The notes: generated from the sequence alone by a model not told the origin. 24,000 nt of DNA from Christensenellaceae bacterium (GCA_020025205.1 JAHHSO010000003.1:67728-91727); one strand, 5' to 3'. Shown: positions 523 through 13,660, counted from the stretch's first letter. Numbers and translations: made by a program.

Positions 523-2781
523 TTATTTCAGTTCCACGAAGTAAAGCAGACCGCCGGTCGTGCCAACGACAATCTGATTGCCGTATGCAGCCGGAGAAGC
601 CTTGATCGGGCTTCCCAAATTCACAGTGCTGATCGTAACACCAGAGAAACCGTCCATCAAGCGAAGGGTTCCATTGTCATCACCCATAACGATGTAACTC
701 TTTCCGTCCGTCTGATACAGACCAATCGGGGACGATACGGATTCTACGTCAAGCGGCTGGTTCCATACCTCTGCGCCCGTCTTCTTATCCAAGGCGAACA
801 CAACAGCGCTGAGGTTGTTCTTGTCCAGCTCAAGACGGTTGACGTTGAAAACCACCAGATCGCTGATCTCGCCTTCGCCAATCAACGCAGAAGCCATCAG
901 GCCAGCATACATGCCTTCCTGGGCGGATTTGCTGGAATATTTTCCCTTCATTTCGGTCTGATATTCCCAGCGGATTTCGCCCGTGAGCGCATCCATCTTG
1001 ACAAGACGCACCTGATTGCTGCGCTCATTCTTGGCGATTGCAGTGCCCGTATACAGGCTGACGCTGCCATCTGCTTCGCACTCAATGGATGGCGTAGCAA
1101 TGACGCTGTCCCCCAGATCGACTGCCCAAACTGTCTTGAGCGTCGTCATGTCAACGCACTGAACCATACCCGCCATATCTCCAAAGTACGCATAATCGCC
1201 ATACGCTGCCGGGCTGCCAACAATTCCAGGCTTTCCGTTGCGGATATTGGTTTCATACGCATAGGCAGCCGCCTTTGGATCAATGGAAATCTCCGCGTTT
1301 TCCAGATCAAACTGGGTATTCATGTCTACCGTATAGAGCATTCCGTTCTGAGAAGTATACACGAGGGTATCAGAATCGGACTCTACCAGTGCCGAAGAAG
1401 TAATCTGGCTGTTTTTAGACTGTGCTTCCAGCTCCTTGCTGGTTTTAAATCCGATGAGCTTCTGATTAATCAAATTGTAGATACGCATGCCAATGACGCC
1501 TTCATAATCGGCAGCTTCGTCTCCTGTCTGACCAACATACAGAAGCGGATAGCCATATGGATTGACACTTGCAGTCACATCCATCGGCAGACCAATGTCA
1601 ATTGGCGGACGAGAAGGCGCCTGCGTATCCAAATCGTAGAAGTAAATTTTGCCGTCAGCAGAAGGAGCGATGACTTCCTTCATGGCTTTCGTATCGCGGG
1701 ACTCCGGATTGATGTTCATCATCTCGCGAATATTCTTATACCACTTCACAATCAGCGGCTGGCTGCCGTAACCGAAACCAGTATACTGATTATCCAGCTT
1801 CGTTGTACGGACTCCGCGAACCACGCTGAGGGTTTCATCCTGCACCTCAACCGTGCCATATGCCGCATTCTGACGCAGCGGACCGCCTCTGAATGTCAGA
1901 ACACCGCCCTGATCAGTATACTTTTCCGGATCACCCATGGAAACCTTTTCGCTTCCCGTCCATTCCGTCTTCTCGCCATCTGCAAGAACGTAACTGCCAG
2001 TAATCAGCGTTTCCGGCAAAGTTTCTTCAACTGCCGCGGCGCGTTCTGCGCGATAAGGAACCGGGGTCGGGCTGGGTGTCGGGGTTGGTACCGGCGTTGG
2101 GCTCGGAGTAGGCGTAGGAACCGGCGTTGGGCTTGGAGTCGGCGTGGGCACCGGCGTCGGACTCGGAGTCGGGCTTGGAGTCGGCGTGGGCACCGGACTC
2201 GGAGTCGGCACTTGTGTCGGCGTAGGCGTCGGCTTAGGTGTCGCTGTCGGAGACGGTGTCGGCACCGGCGTCGGCACATCTGTTGGTTTGGGCGTTGGGG
2301 TCGGCACCGGCGTTGGAACCAGAGTCGCTGTGGGCTCCGGCGTCGGTACAGCCGTTGGTGCAGCCGTCGGCGTTACAGTCGGAGCAGGCGTTGAAATTAT
2401 GCCAATCTGCCTGAAGAGTTCCTCACGCTCCTGCGGAAAAACTACCCAGCCCAAGACCAGAAGGATGATGATGAGAACAAGCACCGAAATGAGAACAGTC
2501 AGGCCGCCGCTGCCGCCTTTTTTGCGTTTTTTTCTGATCTGAGGCATTTCATCCTCGTCATCATTAAACTCGTCTTTCCAAAGCGTTTCCTCTTCAAATT
2601 CGGGAACAGCCTTTCTGACCTCGCTGTGCGGCGGTTCAGGATGAACCGGAGAAGCAGGCTGATTAAAATTCTCTGTTTGCTGAGATTGCTCGAACGCCTC
2701 AAAAGCCTTTTGTTGTGCCTCTGCACGTCTGCGCCTTTTAGGCATCGGCTCACCGTTTTTCTGTTCGTCCAAAGTGTACAC
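523..2781 (-). CDS. Single-pass membrane protein with a charged cytoplasmic N-terminus, a TM helix, a ~113 aa Pro/Thr-rich linker and an extracellular PQQ-like (BamB-type) beta-propeller
   Basis: 752 aa ORF. TM helix [24 protein letters not shown] linker at aa 130-242. The C-terminal ~500 aa carries repeated hydrophobic-G-(S/T/D)xDGxhY(a/v)hD units typical of PQQ-like propeller blades. The start is uncertain: GTG at 2781 abuts GAGGTG, while the in-frame TTG at 2772 has 6 nt spacing. Confidence 0.85.
2056..2394 (-). repeat. Pro/Thr(Ser/Val) low-complexity linker with tandem decapeptide repeats ([10 protein letters not shown] x3-4)
   Basis: The 30-nt units at 2060-2089, 2090-2119 and 2120-2149 encode the identical peptide [10 protein letters not shown] and differ mainly at codon third positions. 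The adjacent 2150-2179 unit is a near-copy. This tract also creates the spurious Arg-rich and Gly/Val-rich + strand ORFs. Confidence 0.9.
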
Positions 2782-3784: not shown

Positions 3785-4852
3785 GTGCAATATAAGATTC
3801 CAATGTTATTTCTCTGTTTGCTTCTTTTCTTCTCTGCCGCCTTCGCAGACGAAGGAACCACGGTCTGTTTTGAAGATTTCATGGCGAATGCTGAAAATGG
3901 CGTCCCCATGATTCGCTACACTGGCCGAACTAAAATCTCCATGAACATGCGCAGCGCCGCTGACAAGGAAAGTGAATCACTGGGGATTTTAAAAGAAGGC
4001 GACACCGTAAAGATTTTCGGTTTCGATCAGGTCTGGCTGTTTTGCTGGGATGAGACCGTCGGTATTTATTACATCGGTCGGCATAATGTAGATGATATTC
4101 AGCCGGTTTCTCCTGATATTCCTCCTTACGGAGTCATTCCAAACCGCTTTGTGGCTTCTACTGCCGTTGAAACCCCTCTCCTTTCCGCACCAGACACCAA
4201 CGCGGAAATATTGGCTTCTTACCCCGCTGATACGCGCATAAGTTTCTGGCATATCGTCGATGGATGGGCTGTCGTTCCATACAAACGGGTGGTCGGTTAC
4301 ATGTACATGGGGGACATGAAAGACTTGACGCCGGTTTCTCCCAGTGTGGAATATGCACAGGCCGGCGACATTCTGTCTGCCTTCACCACTTTCTATTCTA
4401 TCAAACAGACGGAATTGAACATTGGACGTATGGAAAATCTTCGCGTTGGCTCCGACTATATCAGCAAAGTTTATCAGCCAGGCGAATCCTTTTCCTTCAA
4501 CCAGGTTGCAGGCCCTTATCGCAAGAGCCGCGGCTATATGGATTCCCCTGTTCTGATCAACGGCGAATCTGTCGCCGGTTCCGGCGGCGGCACTTGCCAA
4601 GTTTCTACAACATTGTACAACGCTCTTTTGCAGCTGCCAGACGGGATCACCATTCTCTATCGCCATGCACACGGTCCGAGCGGAGCAGCTTATGCGCCTC
4701 ATGGCGTTGATGCAGCGGTAGGCCGTGATTTAGGCGGCGGCAACAGCATTGAATTGGATCTCCGTTTCAGAAATGACTACGATTTTCCCATCGCTCTGGA
4801 CTGCTCTGTGCAAAACGGAGCGTTGTGCATCTGCATTCGCAAAGCAGGATAA
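3785..4852 (+). CDS. Secreted VanW-domain protein with N-terminal SH3b-like domains
   Basis: Signal peptide MQYKIPMLFLCLLLFFSAAFA-DEG. Two SH3b-like segments (GILKEGDTVKIFG..., DGWAVVPYKRVVGYMYMGD). The C-terminal VanW core carries GGGTCQVSTTLYNA. Confidence 0.85.
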   Translation: MQYKIPMLFLCLLLFFSAAFADEGTTVCFEDFMANAENGVPMIRYTGRTKISMNMRSAADKESESLGILKEGDTVKIFGFDQVWLFCWDETVGIYYIGRHNVDDIQPVSPDIPPYGVIPNRFVASTAVETPLLSAPDTNAEILASYPADTRISFWHIVDGWAVVPYKRVVGYMYMGDMKDLTPVSPSVEYAQAGDILSAFTTFYSIKQTELNIGRMENLRVGSDYISKVYQPGESFSFNQVAGPYRKSRGYMDSPVLINGESVAGSGGGTCQVSTTLYNALLQLPDGITILYRHAHGPSGAAYAPHGVDAAVGRDLGGGNSIELDLRFRNDYDFPIALDCSVQNGALCICIRKAG

Positions 4853-8112: not shown

Positions 8113-8928
8113 TCATCGCTCCAGCTGTTCATGCGCCGCCTTGACGACAGCGTTCACATCGTCTTGCGTAACGCGGCGAACTGCTCTGTTTGCCGGCAGA
8201 ATGTGAACCAGAAACTCAATGTTTCCTTCCGGGCCTTTGATTGGCGAATATGACAGATCCTGCGCTATCCAGCCCATATCATTTTCAATAAAATGCAGAA
8301 TCTCAAGAATCACATCATGATGCACCTGTGCATCACGAACCACGCCCTTCTTGCCCACGCGCTCACGTCCCGCTTCAAACTGCGGTTTAATAAGCGAAAT
8401 GAACTCGCCGTCCTCGCCCATGATGGCCGCAGCCGCCGGCAAAATTTTCGTTATGGAAATAAACGATACATCCATTACGCCCAGCGTTGGCTTTCTGTCC
8501 AGATCTTCAGCTGTCAGATACCTTGCATTGACCCTTTCCATCACAGTAACACGCGGGTCATTGCGCAATTTCCAATCCAGCTGGCCATAGCCCACATCAA
8601 TGGAATAGACATGTTCCGCGCCATTCTGCAAAAGCACATCTGTAAACCCGCCGGTTGATGCGCCCAAATCCATGGCCACAACACCAGTCGGATCGACATG
8701 GAACACCTTGAGTCCTTTTTCCAGTTTCAAAGCACCGCGGCTGACATAGCCGGTTCCCGTCTGCCGGACAGACAGCTCGTCTTCGTCCTTCACCTGCATT
8801 GAAGCTTTGTCTACTTTATTCTCTCCAATATAGACCACTCCAGACATGACAAGTGCCTGTGCCTTTTCCCGGCTTGATGCCAACCCGCGCTCCACAAGCG
8901 CGACATCCACTCTCTTCTTATCGGGCAT
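8113..8928 (-). CDS. tlyA: TlyA-family rRNA 2'-O-methyltransferase (S4 domain plus FtsJ-like methyltransferase)
   Basis: 271 aa. S4-like N-terminus (RVDVALVERGLASSREKAQALVMSGVV), a SAM motif (DLGASTGGFTDVLLQNGA) and DVSFISI. Confidence 0.9.
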   Translation of the reverse strand: MPDKKRVDVALVERGLASSREKAQALVMSGVVYIGENKVDKASMQVKDEDELSVRQTGTGYVSRGALKLEKGLKVFHVDPTGVVAMDLGASTGGFTDVLLQNGAEHVYSIDVGYGQLDWKLRNDPRVTVMERVNARYLTAEDLDRKPTLGVMDVSFISITKILPAAAAIMGEDGEFISLIKPQFEAGRERVGKKGVVRDAQVHHDVILEILHFIENDMGWIAQDLSYSPIKGPEGNIEFLVHILPANRAVRRVTQDDVNAVVKAAHEQLER

Positions 8929-10795
8929 GATTGCTCTCCTGATTGATTTCCTTGATTCGCTCAGCCAGCTGTTCTGGCATCAGTCCGCATTCCTCAAGCA
9001 GTTGTGCTACTGAGCCGTGTGCCACAAATCGATTTTCTATACCAATGATTGCAGCAGGTTCCGGCACTTTTTCATTTACGCAGATCCGTGCAATCTCGCT
9101 GCCGAATCCGCCGATTTTTTCGCCTTCTTCAATTGTAATCAGTTTCGCCCCGCGTGCAAACAGCTCTCTTAGACAATCCATATCCAGCGGTTTAAGTGTG
9201 CAGCAATCAATCACGCCGACGTGAATGCCTTCCTTTTCGAGCAGCTGCGATGCCTGAAGCGCATGAAGCGTCATTCGGCCATAGGTCAAAATGACCAGAT
9301 CTCCGCCTGAAACAAGCGTCTGCCATTTGCCGATTTTAAATGGTTCTCCCTCTGCAAACGGTTCAATTCCTTCCTTTGGATACTGAACCACGCACGGCCC
9401 ATTCAGCTCAAGCGTTGCACGCACGGCCTGACGAATCTGCTGAGTATCCCGCGGCGCCAGCAATGTGAGGTTGGGAATGCTCATCAGCATTGGTACGCTG
9501 AGCACCCCATGATGCGTCTTTCCGTCATCACCAACAAGCCCGATATGGTCGGACAAAATGCACACCGGTAAATTCTGAAGACAGACATCATGGACAATCT
9601 GATCATATGCACGCTGAAGAAACGTCGAATATACCGCAAAATATGGCCTGTATCCGCCGCGTGCCAGGCCTGCACACATGCTGACGGCATGTTGCTCGGC
9701 AATGCCGACATCAAAAAAGCGTTTAGGATAGTATCCTGCAAATTCGGCCAGCCCTGTTCCGTCCACCATCGCCGCTGTCACAGCAACAACACGCGGATCT
9801 TCTGCCGCCATCGCAACAAGCGCCTTGCCGCCTGCCTGCGCCGCGCTTTCCTTGCTGCTCTGCTTTCGCTTCATGCCGTTTTCCACCCAGAAAGGTGCAA
9901 TGCCATGAAACTTTTCCGGCTGACGTTCTGCCAAATCGTATCCATATCCCTTTTTCGTGATGACATGAATCAGAAGCGGCGTATCATCCACCTGTTTGGC
10001 TTCTTCGAATACATGGGTCATTTCTTCAATGTTGTGACCATCGAACGGGCCAAGATAGCGAAAGCCCAGCGCTTCGAACATCTCGCCTCCGGTCGTAACG
10101 GATTTGACCATGTTTTTTACGCTCTCAATTGCATGAGCCAGCGGCACGCCGACAAGCGGGATCTTCTCCATGCGGCTGCGGATGCGTTTTTTCCCTCCAT
10201 ACCAGGACGCACTCGCACGCAGATGCTTGAAATAATTCGACAATGCGCCCACATTTTTAGAGATGGACATGGCGTTGTCATTCAGAATGACGATCAGGCG
10301 AGTATGCCCATTTCCAGCGTCGTTCATAGCTTCATAGCACATGCCGCCCGTGAGCGCGCCGTCGCCCACAACGGCAACCACGTGATAATTTTCCCCCGCC
10401 AGATCGCGTGCACGCGCCATACCCAATGCCATAGAAATCGACGTTGAAGAATGGCCCGTGTCAAACAAATCATGTTCACTTTCTTCGTGGCAGGGAAATC
10501 CGCTCATGCCATGATAGGATCGCAGCGTTTCAAACTGCTTCTGTCTGCCGGTCAGCAGTTTATGGGCATAGATCTGATGCCCTACATCGAATATAAGTTT
10601 ATCTGTCGGGCTGGAAAATGCCCTGTGCAATGCAATTGTTAAATCGACATCTCCCAAATTCGATGCCAGATGGCCGCCCTGACGAGAAACCGTATCCACA
10701 ATAGTCTGTCTGATTTCCTTTGCAAGCGTTCTGCACTCCTCCGCAGACAACTTTTTTACGTCCTCTGGGCCTTTCACTTCGGGCAGAATACCCAT
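8918..10795 (-). CDS. dxs: 1-deoxy-D-xylulose-5-phosphate synthase
   Basis: 625 aa with GHLASNLG, GHSSTSISMALGMA and the TPP motif VVGDGALTGGMCYEAMN. It overlaps tlyA by 11 nt. Confidence 0.97.
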   Translation of the reverse strand: MGILPEVKGPEDVKKLSAEECRTLAKEIRQTIVDTVSRQGGHLASNLGDVDLTIALHRAFSSPTDKLIFDVGHQIYAHKLLTGRQKQFETLRSYHGMSGFPCHEESEHDLFDTGHSSTSISMALGMARARDLAGENYHVVAVVGDGALTGGMCYEAMNDAGNGHTRLIVILNDNAMSISKNVGALSNYFKHLRASASWYGGKKRIRSRMEKIPLVGVPLAHAIESVKNMVKSVTTGGEMFEALGFRYLGPFDGHNIEEMTHVFEEAKQVDDTPLLIHVITKKGYGYDLAERQPEKFHGIAPFWVENGMKRKQSSKESAAQAGGKALVAMAAEDPRVVAVTAAMVDGTGLAEFAGYYPKRFFDVGIAEQHAVSMCAGLARGGYRPYFAVYSTFLQRAYDQIVHDVCLQNLPVCILSDHIGLVGDDGKTHHGVLSVPMLMSIPNLTLLAPRDTQQIRQAVRATLELNGPCVVQYPKEGIEPFAEGEPFKIGKWQTLVSGGDLVILTYGRMTLHALQASQLLEKEGIHVGVIDCCTLKPLDMDCLRELFARGAKLITIEEGEKIGGFGSEIARICVNEKVPEPAAIIGIENRFVAHGSVAQLLEECGLMPEQLAERIKEINQESNHAR

Positions 10796-10807: not shown

Positions 10808-11365
10808 TTACGCTTTCTTCTTAACCTGTTTCTTTTCAAAAAAGGCCATTGCACGGCCCACCATCAGAACAATCTTGCCGCTCTTCTCAATGGCAATGCC
10901 CTTTGCATACGCCTTGCCGCCGATCATAAATGCAGAAATAAACGCCGTCATTAAAACAGAGGCCAACGCACCTGGCACACCCAATGTCACAAGGGACAGC
11001 GCAATCACCGAACCAGCCGAACCGGAAACAATGCCGACAATATCACCTACGACATCGTTCAAGACACTTGAAACGCGCTCTGCTTTACGAATGAGACGCA
11101 GTGCCTGTTTAGCTCCCGTGATCCGCTTGGAAGCCATCGCAATAAATGGCTGATCTTCCGCAGAGGTAACAGCCGTTCCAATCATATCTGTGATAATACC
11201 CACAAGTACCAGCACAATCAGCGCCACCAGCGCCACAAAAAGACCAGCAGATTCAGTAAACACGCGGGTTAAAAGGGACATTGCCACTGACAGCGCAAAA
11301 GACAGACAGACAACCGTGATAACCCATCGCTGTTTTCCCTGCTTGGACTTTTCTTTTTTATTCAT
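10808..11365 (-). CDS. oapA: Small 4-TM membrane protein immediately downstream of the large RNA; candidate OLE-associated protein A
   Basis: 185 aa (~20 kDa), basic at both ends, with four hydrophobic helices (about aa 14-35, 41-62, 105-128, 131-150) and a DxxxD motif (D104-VVG-D108). The call rests on position (large RNA, this gene, then dxs) plus topology, not on a database match. Confidence 0.7.
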   Translation of the reverse strand: MNKKEKSKQGKQRWVITVVCLSFALSVAMSLLTRVFTESAGLFVALVALIVLVLVGIITDMIGTAVTSAEDQPFIAMASKRITGAKQALRLIRKAERVSSVLNDVVGDIVGIVSGSAGSVIALSLVTLGVPGALASVLMTAFISAFMIGGKAYAKGIAIEKSGKIVLMVGRAMAFFEKKQVKKKA

Positions 11366-11409: not shown

Positions 11410-11436
11410 AAAAAAGCCCACGTCCAAGCCGTGGGC
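11410..11436 (-). terminator. Intrinsic terminator-like hairpin at the 3' end of the RNA
   Basis: The - strand reads GCCCACG-GCUUGGA-CGUGGGC followed by UUUUUU. It ends 44 nt upstream of the oapA start. Confidence 0.75.
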
Positions 11437-12011
11437 AAACATTCAAAGGAAAGGTGGTAATACGACAAATAAACCTTGCGGCTTAGGTTCGGTAGGATTT
11501 CCCCACTCATTACTTCCTGTCGCCATAGAAGCGGTTTCCCTTGAAAACGAGTGCCGCGCCGTTTCCGAACGCGGGACCGAATTACCACTGAGTCCACACT
11601 GTAATCTCTGTCATATCCTCACGACAGTCTAGGAGCTTTCCTCGGCAGCCTCGGTTTCTTCCTAGCCTCTTTTGCAATCGTGGTTTCACACAGCGATCGC
11701 CCCGGTTTCCGTGAGCCTTTGGTCACCGTGCGTTGTTCCATGATCCGCCACAATCACTCAAGGCAGGCTACACTGCAGGCAGCTTTTGTACCACCATGCA
11801 GGTTTTCATGACGCAAAGCCGTCATGCCTCCACGAAAAATGGGTCGAACTCCGACATGCCATTGCCGGCCGCCCATAATTCTTACTCCCAGTGCCGACCC
11901 CCGACTGGGCGTCAGCAGCCGCCACCAGAAACTTCATCGATATGCCCTTTAACGGATTTTTAGCCCCGTCTTGAGAAGAAACTTTGCTGACTAGAATACT
12001 GCACCACCTGT
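11410..12011 (-). ncRNA. ole: ~600 nt highly structured non-coding RNA, called as OLE (ornate, large, extremophilic) RNA
   Basis: A 707 nt coding gap in an operon that is otherwise nearly gap-free. It has its own consensus promoter and a terminal hairpin with a U6 tract. The termini pair (AGGUGGU 12009-12003 with ACCACCU 11458-11452) and there are many internal helices (see findings). Size and position between ispA and a 4-TM protein plus dxs match what is published for OLE. The 5' end is estimated from the -10 box. Confidence 0.8.
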
Positions 12012-12017
12012 TTTTTA

Positions 12018-12046
12018 ATTATACCATAGCTGTCCGGCATTTTCAA
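12018..12046 (-). promoter_or_regulatory. Near-consensus sigma-A promoter driving the large RNA
   Basis: The - strand reads TTGAAA (12046-12041), a 17 nt spacer, then TATAAT (12023-12018). The -10 is preceded by TGg, an extended -10 element. Confidence 0.75.
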
Positions 12047-12072: not shown

Positions 12073-12519
12073 TCAGGAGAGCAGTATCCCCACAAAAATG
12101 CCCAGCAGTGCGCCAGCAAGCACCTGAATGGGCGTATGTCCAACAAGTTCTTTAAGTCTTTCCTCGCTCATGGTGAAGCCATTTCCGGCCAGCCCATCCA
12201 GCAGGTGGTTCAAAACTGCGGCATTCTGTCCGGTTGATCGGCGAACGCCCGCCGCATCATACATCACAATGCCCGCAAAACAAAATCCAAGTGCAAAAAT
12301 GGGGGACGAAAATCCTTCTTTAAATCCAATCGTCGTCACCATCGCACAAGCCAGCGCAGAATGCGAACTGGGCATACCGCCCGAACCAAACACCCGGGTC
12401 GAGTCAAAACGCCTGCTGATAGCAAACGTCAGCGCTACTTTCAGCCCCTGCGCAATTGCCCAGGCAAGAACTGCCGCCCGAATGACCTGATTGCTAAAGA
12501 TTTCTCGAAAAACCCACAC
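12073..12519 (-). CDS. Divergent PAP2 / DUF212 family membrane protein (acid phosphatase / vanadium-haloperoxidase-related)
   Basis: 148 aa, polytopic, with the family-typical FGSGGMPSSHSA motif and C-terminal GHTPIQVLAGALLG. Confidence 0.85.
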   Translation of the reverse strand: MWVFREIFSNQVIRAAVLAWAIAQGLKVALTFAISRRFDSTRVFGSGGMPSSHSALACAMVTTIGFKEGFSSPIFALGFCFAGIVMYDAAGVRRSTGQNAAVLNHLLDGLAGNGFTMSEERLKELVGHTPIQVLAGALLGIFVGILLS

Positions 12520-12534
12520 GAGTATTTCCTCCCG

Positions 12535-13446
12535 TCACTTTTTCCTCTTGGCCAGTGCATCGGCAAACGCCTGAAGGAACCTCGCGTCCTCACCGAAGCA
12601 ATCAAGTGCTTCTTTGGCCTGCTGCCACAACAAATTAGATCGCGCCTTTGCCGCCTCTATGCCCACAAGCGCCGGCCACGTCATCTTGCCGTGCTGAGCA
12701 TCCATACCCGTTGCCTTGCCCATTTCCCCTGCATTGCCTTCTACATCGAGCAAATCGTCGTCAATCTGGAAGGCTACGCCGACACAGGCACCAAACCGCT
12801 CAAGCGCTGTTCTCTGCTGCTCTGTCGCGCCGGCAATATAGGATGCCGCCATCAGCGGAGCGGTCAGAAGATCCGCCGTCTTATGCGTGTGAATATAGAA
12901 AAGCGTATCCGCATCCGGATCATGGTGTTCGCTGAGCAAATCAACGCACTGTCCGGCAATCATGCCGCTGACGCCTGCACGCTTTGCCACCGCTTCTGCC
13001 GCACGAATATGCCCTTCCAGATGATCTTTAAAGCGCAACGCATTTGAAAGCATGCACTCATATGCATAATTCAGCAGACCATCGCCCGCCAGAATAGCAA
13101 ACCCTTCTCCAAACACCTTATGATTTGTCAATCTGCCGCGGCGATAGTCATCGTTGTCCATGCCTGGAAGATCATCATGAATAAGCGAATAAGTATGAAT
13201 CATTTCCAGCGCAGCAGCCGGAACAAGCGCTTCCTCTATATTGCCTTTGAGCATGTCGCAAACCGCCAGCAGAAGAACCGGCCTCACGCGTTTTCCGCCT
13301 GCCAGAAGGCTGTACCGCATGGCTTCACTCAGCTTTCCGGGCATTTCGCCTTCGGGTGGACAAAGCATCTTCCCTTCCGGCAATATGGTATTCAGAGTTG
13401 CTTCAATCAGAGCCGCATACCGCTGATACTGCTCAATATACTCCAT
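12535..13446 (-). CDS. ispA: Polyprenyl (farnesyl/geranylgeranyl) diphosphate synthase
   Basis: Both Asp-rich motifs are present: LIHDDLPGMDNDDYRRG and FQIDDDLLD. The start is reassigned to the ATG at 13446 (MEYIEQYQRY...), preceded by GAGGAGG. The track start at 13533 would overlap xseB by 100 nt. Confidence 0.93.
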   Translation of the reverse strand: MEYIEQYQRYAALIEATLNTILPEGKMLCPPEGEMPGKLSEAMRYSLLAGGKRVRPVLLLAVCDMLKGNIEEALVPAAALEMIHTYSLIHDDLPGMDNDDYRRGRLTNHKVFGEGFAILAGDGLLNYAYECMLSNALRFKDHLEGHIRAAEAVAKRAGVSGMIAGQCVDLLSEHHDPDADTLFYIHTHKTADLLTAPLMAASYIAGATEQQRTALERFGACVGVAFQIDDDLLDVEGNAGEMGKATGMDAQHGKMTWPALVGIEAAKARSNLLWQQAKEALDCFGEDARFLQAFADALAKRKK

Positions 13447-13660
13447 GTTCTTCCTCCTCAAATGGTGTAATTTCTGCTGTATAAGGATCAATTTGCTCGA
13501 TCCTCTTCCTATACTTTGCCAGCTCTTTTTCAAGCTGGTCTGCCAGTTTCACACCCTCTTCGTAGGCTTTCATCGTCTCATCAAGGGTCAGCTCACCGCC
13601 GCTGAGCCGTTCAGTCAATGCTTCCAGCTGCTGCATCCCCTCTTCAAAAGATGTTTTCAT
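13433..13660 (-). CDS. xseB: Exodeoxyribonuclease VII small subunit
   Basis: 75 aa: FEEGMQQLEALTERLSGGELTLDETMKAYEEGVKLADQLEKEL. Confidence 0.9.
   Translation of the reverse strand: MKTSFEEGMQQLEALTERLSGGELTLDETMKAYEEGVKLADQLEKELAKYRKRIEQIDPYTAEITPFEEEEHGVY

Follow-up and report, generated by a model that had tools for sequence, protein, structure and literature searches.

An OapA orthologue encoded beside OLE RNA in the genome of a Christensenellaceae bacterium

The ole-oapA locus and its neighbourhood

The window, by which we mean the whole 24,000-nucleotide stretch that was analysed (Christensenellaceae bacterium, GCA_020025205.1 JAHHSO010000003.1:67728-91727), carries an open reading frame of 185 amino acids that an earlier note on this DNA had put forward as a candidate oapA, the gene for the membrane protein partner of OLE RNA. 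The ORF proved to be real, with the anatomy first described for it; it starts with ATG, and no longer in-frame start was found. The locus is made up of the following features, all of them on the minus strand:

8918..10795 (-), dxs (Pfam DXP_synthase_N, 380 bits)
10808..11365 (-), oapA, 185-aa orthologue of OLE-associated protein A; the coordinates include the stop codon
11410..11436 (-), terminator-like hairpin between ole and oapA (GCCCACG-GCTTGGA-CGTGGGC followed by T6)
11438..12023 (-), OLE RNA gene, full length (Rfam RF01071, 478.2 bits, E 1.2e-137, model positions 1-616)
12018..12046 (-), promoter-like site TTGAAA-17-TATAAT with TG before TATAAT (sigma-70-type, 11 of 12 consensus matches)
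12073..12519 (-), DUF212 (divergent PAP2) gene, between ispA and ole (Pfam PF02681, 163 bits)
12535..13533 (-), ispA-type polyprenyl synthetase gene (Pfam PF00348, 194 bits)

As is typical of oapA genes, the ORF lies on the same strand as ole and immediately downstream of it, with 72 nt between the 3' end of the Rfam OLE match and the oapA ATG. At its other end, a spacer of 12 nt, the length given in the earlier note, separates it from the dxs ATG (10795); this spacer contains GGAGG, and dxs is probably co-transcribed with oapA. The gene order in the window (spoIIIA..nusB-folD-xseAB-ispA-[DUF212]-ole-oapA-dxs-tlyA-nadK-argR-recN) is the canonical OLE neighbourhood, and the isoprenoid setting that had been ascribed to the RNA and the protein (ispA, a PAP2-like gene and dxs) is borne out by matches to PF00348, PF02681 and DXP_synthase_N. 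The OapB and OapC genes had been stated to lie outside the window, and the Pfam scan of the window ORFs indeed returned no KOW or L7Ae domain; oapB (ybzG) and oapC (ybxF) are reported to be encoded elsewhere, and to be missing from some OLE-bearing clades (PMC11332333).

A C. botulinum assembly has the order Asp23-nusB-xseA-xseB-ispA-OLE-oapA-dxs-FtsJ/TlyA-nadK-argR, with oapA beginning 60 nt after a 564-bit OLE match. This order is shared with the window, where recN comes after argR. The window differs in having DUF2273, a TsaD-like gene and folD as well in the interval from Asp23 to xseA, a DUF212 gene separating ispA from ole, and the spoIIIA operon further upstream. The flanking genes form a widely conserved Bacillota cluster, and ole-oapA is inserted between the ispA and dxs genes of that cluster.

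The promoter-like site at 12018..12046 lies directly upstream of the OLE 5' end and overlaps it. Its -10 box falls exactly on positions 1-6 of the Rfam OLE model, so that the 5' end of the model probably takes in promoter sequence instead of RNA. In H. halodurans, a promoter close to ole has been shown by experiment to be active (PMC3413148), and by analogy the site in the window could well act as the ole promoter, in which case ole would be transcribed from a strong promoter of its own.

The hairpin found just past the Rfam OLE 3' end (11438) has a 7-bp stem with 6 G-C pairs and a loop of 7. The earlier note had the ORF starting 44 nt after the terminal hairpin of the RNA; this figure is explained if the 11436..11410 hairpin is meant, since the interval from its T-tract to the oapA ATG is exactly 44 nt, but the hairpin itself is terminator-like and falls outside the OLE consensus. 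The presence of such an element between ole and oapA suggests that OLE is here a discrete transcription unit and that oapA-dxs is expressed by read-through of the hairpin; transcripts of the upstream operon could also supply oapA-dxs expression. In the three closest relatives (L001-L003) the stem is identical and the loops are different. The hairpin is a lineage-specific feature and not a general one of ole/oapA loci, a comparable element being present in just 17 of 74 loci.

Anatomy of the predicted protein

The predicted product has a mass of 19.4 kDa, slightly smaller than the approximately 21 kDa given for OapA in the earlier note, and a pI of 10.3. Its AlphaFold2 model (pLDDT 92.9, pTM 0.83) has long helices at residues 3-39, 42-68, 95-127 and 132-160, short helices at 71-79 and 85-93, and a C-terminal helix at 162-184. 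Kyte-Doolittle analysis gives hydrophobic stretches peaking at 15-33, 40-58, 109-127 and 120-138. The main features of the protein map to the window as follows:

11267..11323 (-), N-terminal hydrophobic helix, residues 15-33 (Kyte-Doolittle peak 2.29; part of AlphaFold2 helix 3-39)
11186..11188 (-), codon of invariant D60, in helix 42-68 (100-sequence alignment and 78 of 78 RNA-selected loci)
11084..11161 (-), basic loop, residues 69-94, with two short helices (sequence; AlphaFold2 helices 71-79 and 85-93)
11042..11056 (-), codons of D104-V-V-G-D108, the DxxxD signature (sequence)
10901..10915 (-), codons K151..K155, with the invariant lysines of helix 132-160 (100-sequence alignment)

The four hydrophobic helices described earlier are thus recovered both as hydropathy peaks and as AlphaFold2 helices. 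The Lys-rich termini hold up equally well, with K or R at 6 of the first 15 and 6 of the last 15 residues. DVVGD (104-108), the sole DxxxD in the protein, sits in the first third of the third long helix (95-127), in agreement with its placement at the start of helix 3.

Positively charged residues are unevenly distributed along the chain, with 6 K/R in the N-terminus, 1 in the loop 34-41, 7 in the loop 69-96 (6 within residues 69-94, plus the adjacent R96), none in the loop 128-131 and 8 in the C-terminus. Since this distribution fits the positive-inside rule, a topology with both termini in the cytoplasm and four membrane-spanning helices (15-33, 42-68, 95-127 and 132-160) seems likely. Hydropathy, K/R distribution and predicted helices accordingly agree on the four transmembrane helices and conserved basic cytoplasmic-face cluster that are predicted for OapA. 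The C-terminal helix (162-184) would be an amphipathic belt helix. Helix 15-33 is either a signal anchor or a signal sequence; in the literature the N-terminal helix of OapA is treated as a signal sequence (PMC12265935).

Homologues and conserved residues

Searches of Pfam and NCBIfam at normal thresholds assigned no family to the 185-aa ORF and returned no OapA model. When 1.84 billion cluster representatives (50% identity) were searched exhaustively with HMMER, on the other hand, 1001 relatives came up at E<=1e-3, of which 724 reached E<=1e-10, and nearly all of these relatives are between 170 and 260 aa long. A search seeded with a family member from Clostridium oceanicum reached 5203 clusters, including proteins of C. 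botulinum and C. tetani, two species named as bearers of OLE and its associated protein (PMC3413148). The window protein is 42% identical to C. botulinum OapA (P0275; CLB_RS09010) over 168 residues (E 2e-25) and 40% identical to the C. tetani homologue (P0307; E 1e-34). Lack of detectable similarity to OapA sequences would have spoken against the proposed identity, and this similarity, along with the linkage to OLE, upholds it. Orthology was judged on these two clostridial proteins, the link to H. halodurans BH2780 being indirect, via the family.

The best database match to the window protein is 97% identical, and the nearest named relatives, at 75-76% identity, come from Candidatus Ventricola and Spyradocola metagenome-assembled genomes (MAGs). 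The host lineage therefore appears to belong to the uncultured Clostridia.

Conservation was assessed in an alignment of 100 diverse family members which, except for three close ones, are 33-46% identical to the window protein. Five columns are invariant (D60, D104, G115, K151 and K155), and a further set (G63, A65, F74, V98, G107, D108, G111, S114, G150, A152 and I165) is at least 90% conserved, the consensus around the DxxxD motif being CNDVVGDICGIxSG. Of the two aspartates strictly conserved in OapA proteins, D104 is thus invariant and D108 at least 90% conserved in this alignment.

Known OapA proteins (H. halodurans BH2780 and C. botulinum CLB_RS09010) are likewise about 185-190 aa long, with four hydrophobic helices and basic cytoplasmic segments. 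They share the invariant DxxxD aspartates (D104/D108 in the window, D100/D104 in H. halodurans), the position of the gene immediately downstream of ole, and a CNNM-like fold with sub-threshold similarity to PF01595. There is no substantial difference between them and the window protein, the DUF212 gene and the hairpin of the window recurring in subsets of other OLE loci.

Co-occurrence with OLE RNA

To examine how closely the protein family follows OLE RNA, two sets of loci were assembled, one selected by the protein and the other by the RNA. For the protein-selected set, a scan of one genome per species found a relative in at least 594 genomes, and the best 80 loci, representing the closest relatives, were used with flanks of about 4 kb, in which OLE was sought by nhmmer with the window OLE sequence. 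OLE was found upstream and on the same strand in 79/80 of them. Among the weak cases, an Rfam check showed three (L046, L054 and L066) to have shortened OLE RNAs that score above threshold and one (L022) to have an OLE cut by the contig end. Motif presence in these loci (L001-L080) was not counted, as it would be circular, the scan pattern having contained D[VI][VI]GD.

The RNA-selected set comprised 120 metagenomic loci chosen by a 24-base OLE pattern alone. An OapA-family protein (family HMM, E<=1e-5) was encoded downstream and on the same strand in all 78 of those with at least 1300 nt of downstream sequence. Their identity to the window protein ranges from 30 to 72%, with a median of 37%, and D60, D104, G107 and D108 are kept in 78/78, K151 in 76/78 and K155 in 77/78.

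Near-exclusive co-occurrence with OLE, as expected of OapA, is therefore seen from both directions (79/80 and 78/78). The test across genomes that the earlier note had called for comes out in its favour, and the finding that would have told against it, a family widespread in genomes lacking the RNA, was not made among the protein-selected loci. Its statement that OapA is found only next to OLE is nearly correct; the departures from it are a locus without OLE within 4 kb (L041) and one in which a gene lies between the two partners (L066).

The first of these, in an uncultured Bacilli MAG (CAKPCH010000006.1, L041 3980..4513, plus strand), is an OapA-family ORF 42% identical to the window protein, with DVVGD and a PF01595 score of 20 bits. 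No OLE was detected within 4 kb on either side, even at an Rfam E-value of <=1; the contig is 132 kb long and may carry OLE elsewhere. The neighbouring genes are unrelated to those of the window, coding for a hybrid histidine kinase, a polysaccharide deacetylase, a pilin-like Ig protein and a CBS-DHH protein. In the second, from an Erysipelotrichaceae MAG (L066 1518..4522, plus strand), the gene for a 409-aa PDZ-domain protein separates a shortened OLE (252 bits) from oapA, and a gene for a YgjP-like metallopeptidase takes the place of dxs after oapA. The two other shortened OLE variants (L046 and L054) score 223-227 bits.

Predicted fold and relationship to CNNM proteins

When the AlphaFold2 model was compared with the PDB by Foldseek, the top six matches were all CorB/CorC membrane domains (7M1T, 7M1U, 7CFF and 7CFG), with probabilities of 0.98-1.00 and TM-scores of 0.50-0.57, and CNNM/CorB/CorC membrane domains were the only fold matches. 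Sequence searches of the PDB with the window protein and with the family profile gave no relevant match and failed to detect CorB/CorC. In Pfam, the sole meaningful match at relaxed thresholds was PF01595 (CNNM/DUF21), at 12.2 bits and with an alignment starting at residue 49; close homologues reach 20-27 bits. The gathering cut-off of this family is 28.4 bits, and the window protein matched it neither at that threshold nor at E<=0.01. As sequence profiles miss CorB/CorC in the PDB, support for a relationship to CNNM comes from the predicted fold and the sub-threshold Pfam similarity. The same combination, sub-threshold similarity to CNNM/DUF21 and a structure closest to CorB (7M1U), is a mark of OapA, and in a published PF01595 search OapA formed the next-best cluster below the true CNNM/MpfA proteins (PMC11332333).

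The CorB membrane domain consists of TM1, two short intracellular helices, TM2, TM3 and a belt-like juxtamembrane helix (PMC8242095). In the model, the helices between residues 42 and 184 would match this order one-to-one, the predicted structure having three transmembrane helices, two short helices and a juxtamembrane helix, and in both proteins conserved polar or charged residues are found within the helices. The window protein differs in several respects. It has an additional N-terminal helix (3-39), and it ends at residue 185, after the belt helix, whereas CNNM/CorB/CorC proteins go on to a CBS-pair and a CorC domain; no match to either was found in it by Pfam. The third transmembrane helix of CNNM proteins contains an invariant Glu-Ile-x-Pro that forms a pi-helical turn coordinating Mg2+ (PMC8242095). 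This motif is absent from helix 132-160 of the window protein, which reads GALASVLMTAFISAFMIGGKAYAKGIAIE, and the conserved CNNM proline has been reported missing from OapA (PMC11332333). Instead of Glu-Ile-x-Pro, OapA has DxxxD and two invariant lysines (PMC8242095, PMC11332333).

The two families also differ in their genomic associations, OapA being obligatorily linked to an RNA gene. MpfA has been reported as anticorrelated with OLE (PMC11332333). A search of the 202 loci collected here for a CNNM protein, by the motif GE[ILVM]xPK, found none. Since it lacks the CBS and CorC domains and Glu-Ile-x-Pro and possesses DxxxD and the lysines, the window protein is not filed here as a CNNM member; on the predicted structure, it is a CNNM-like fold with an N-terminal helix added, outside the CNNM family proper.

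Function and alternative explanations

The window protein is an orthologue of OapA, as judged from its sequence, its motif, its predicted fold, the position of its gene and its association with OLE, and we hold it very probable that the ORF at 10808..11365 (-) encodes the integral-membrane partner of OLE RNA. The experimental properties of this partner come from H. halodurans, where the binding of OapA to OLE RNA is cooperative, with a ratio of at least 2:1, and where the protein is required for tolerance of ethanol, cold, poor carbon sources and Mg2+ above 2 mM (PMC12265935, PMC9723947, PMC7936274). Two points made in the earlier note can be traced to the literature: the membrane localisation of OLE does depend on OapA (PMC12265935), and the dominant-negative DxxxD mutant is OapA PM1, which carries D100A and D104A in the H. 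halodurans protein (PMC9723947, PMC7936274). PM1 is suppressed by mutations that block the binding of OapB or OapC to OLE (PMC12265935, PMC9723947, PMC7936274).

By analogy with these proteins, the window OapA would be the membrane anchor of the OLE particle and, probably, its ion-handling module. Under the published working model, which seems the most likely, a dimeric CNNM-like OapA module tethers OLE RNA at the membrane, where it probably handles or senses divalent cations. That the RNA stands in for the missing cytosolic regulatory domains is a published hypothesis (Fernando and Breaker 2024), and OLE could substitute for these domains here in the same way. The Lys/Arg-rich N-terminus, the 69-96 loop and the C-terminus are likely to face the cytoplasm and could form an RNA-docking surface. 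Judging from the helix boundaries alone, D60, D104, D108, K151 and K155 would be located in the cytoplasmic half of TM1-3. These invariant residues may border a polar, inward-facing cavity comparable to the ion cavity of CorB, whose Mg2+ site comprises S21, S25, S71, G110 and E111.

The fold itself raises the question of whether the protein could be a stand-alone, minimal CNNM/CorB-type Mg2+/Co2+ transporter that works independently of the RNA and lies beside OLE through conserved gene order alone. Besides the exclusive match of the predicted fold to CorB/CorC membrane domains and the weak PF01595 similarity, this reading could draw on the names of some UniRef homologues ('Mg2+ and Co2+ transporter CorB', 'CNNM domain-containing protein') and on the Bacilli homologue with no OLE within 4 kb. 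We nevertheless reject it as very unlikely. The PF01595 score (12.2 bits) is well short of the 28.4-bit cut-off, no CBS-pair or CorC domain is present in a protein of 185 aa in total, and Glu-Ile-x-Pro is replaced by an invariant DxxxD not found in CNNM domains (PMC8242095, PMC11332333). Furthermore, the linkage to OLE (79/80 and 78/78) is tighter than that to dxs (72/80), and published RNA binding and common knockout phenotypes join OLE and OapA. Ion handling as part of OapA function is compatible with all of these observations, and it is independence from the RNA alone that is disfavoured.

Gene order could also be taken to mean that the protein belongs, as a membrane component, to isoprenoid or polyprenyl-phosphate metabolism, is co-expressed with ispA, the phosphatase-like DUF212 gene and dxs, and lies next to the RNA only incidentally. 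oapA does have ispA/DUF212 on one side and dxs on the other; the spacer before dxs is only 12 nt long, the ribosome-binding context there looks shared, and dxs is the next gene in 72 of the 80 protein-selected loci. The family nonetheless follows OLE, not dxs: 8 of the 80 loci are without a dxs match, and the Erysipelotrichaceae locus has both OLE and the protein in the absence of dxs. In addition, the protein has no similarity to isoprenoid enzyme families in Pfam or NCBIfam, and the ispA..dxs cluster occurs without oapA in Bacillota that lack OLE, such as B. subtilis. The published deletion phenotypes of ole and oapA in H. halodurans are identical. We therefore reject this reading too, and regard it as extremely unlikely. 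As for the ORF being a chance one with no real gene behind it, which the lack of any Pfam or NCBIfam match at threshold might have suggested, the likelihood is negligible; the idea is refuted by the conservation data, with more than 1000 cluster representatives matching the protein (5203 clusters with a related query) and residues that are invariant across sequences 30-40% identical, and the structure prediction is confident.

The OapA reading is left as the explanation of the locus. The OLE-OapA system is already known, having been catalogued in more than 700 species (PMC12265935), and the window holds a typical copy of oapA, so that its recognition is a rediscovery. The locus adds an ordinary example from an uncultured, gut-type Clostridia lineage. 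Its value is that of a positive control, as both partners were correctly recognised from raw sequence, and several published claims have been independently reproduced along the way (near-absolute co-occurrence, the invariant DxxxD, the CorB-like fold and the sub-threshold CNNM scores). The particle itself, in which an RNA of about 600 nt, proposed to be membrane-spanning, is combined with a CNNM-like protein, is among the most puzzling of bacterial ribonucleoproteins. It resembles SRP RNA with Ffh/FtsY in that a structured noncoding RNA is carried to the membrane by a protein partner, but the SRP proteins, which are GTPases of soluble or peripheral type, are not homologous to OapA, an integral membrane protein encoded beside its RNA.

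Among the papers that could be searched, none pairs OLE RNA with DUF212, PAP2 or yuiD. It is conceivable, if rather unlikely, that the DUF212 protein is an unrecognised accessory of OLE-OapA, one that would tie the particle to polyprenyl-phosphate or lipid-phosphate turnover at the membrane.

Other genes of the neighbourhood

A DUF212 gene is found between ispA and ole in 25 of the 93 loci that hold both ispA and oapA, with identities of 42-78%. The DUF212-ole arrangement was seen in 12 of the protein-selected loci (L001-L003, L006, L029, L031, L033, L038, L043, L068, L075 and L080) and in 22 metagenome loci, and the lineages concerned are as far apart as Alkaliphilus, Petromonas and Anaerosolibacter.

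Upstream of the OLE cluster, between 14849 and 23008 on the minus strand, the window carries a Bacillus-like spoIIIAA-AB-AC-AD-AE ... AH series along with Asp23, DUF2273, nusB, a TsaD-like gene and folD, and downstream of the cluster are a tlyA-like gene, nadK, argR and recN. Two further genes, at the far end of the window, are apparently unrelated to the OLE cluster. One (523..2781, minus strand) encodes a protein of 752 aa that carries PQQ/beta-propeller repeats in its C-terminal region, and the other (3785..4852, plus strand) a VanW-like protein with an SH3 domain.
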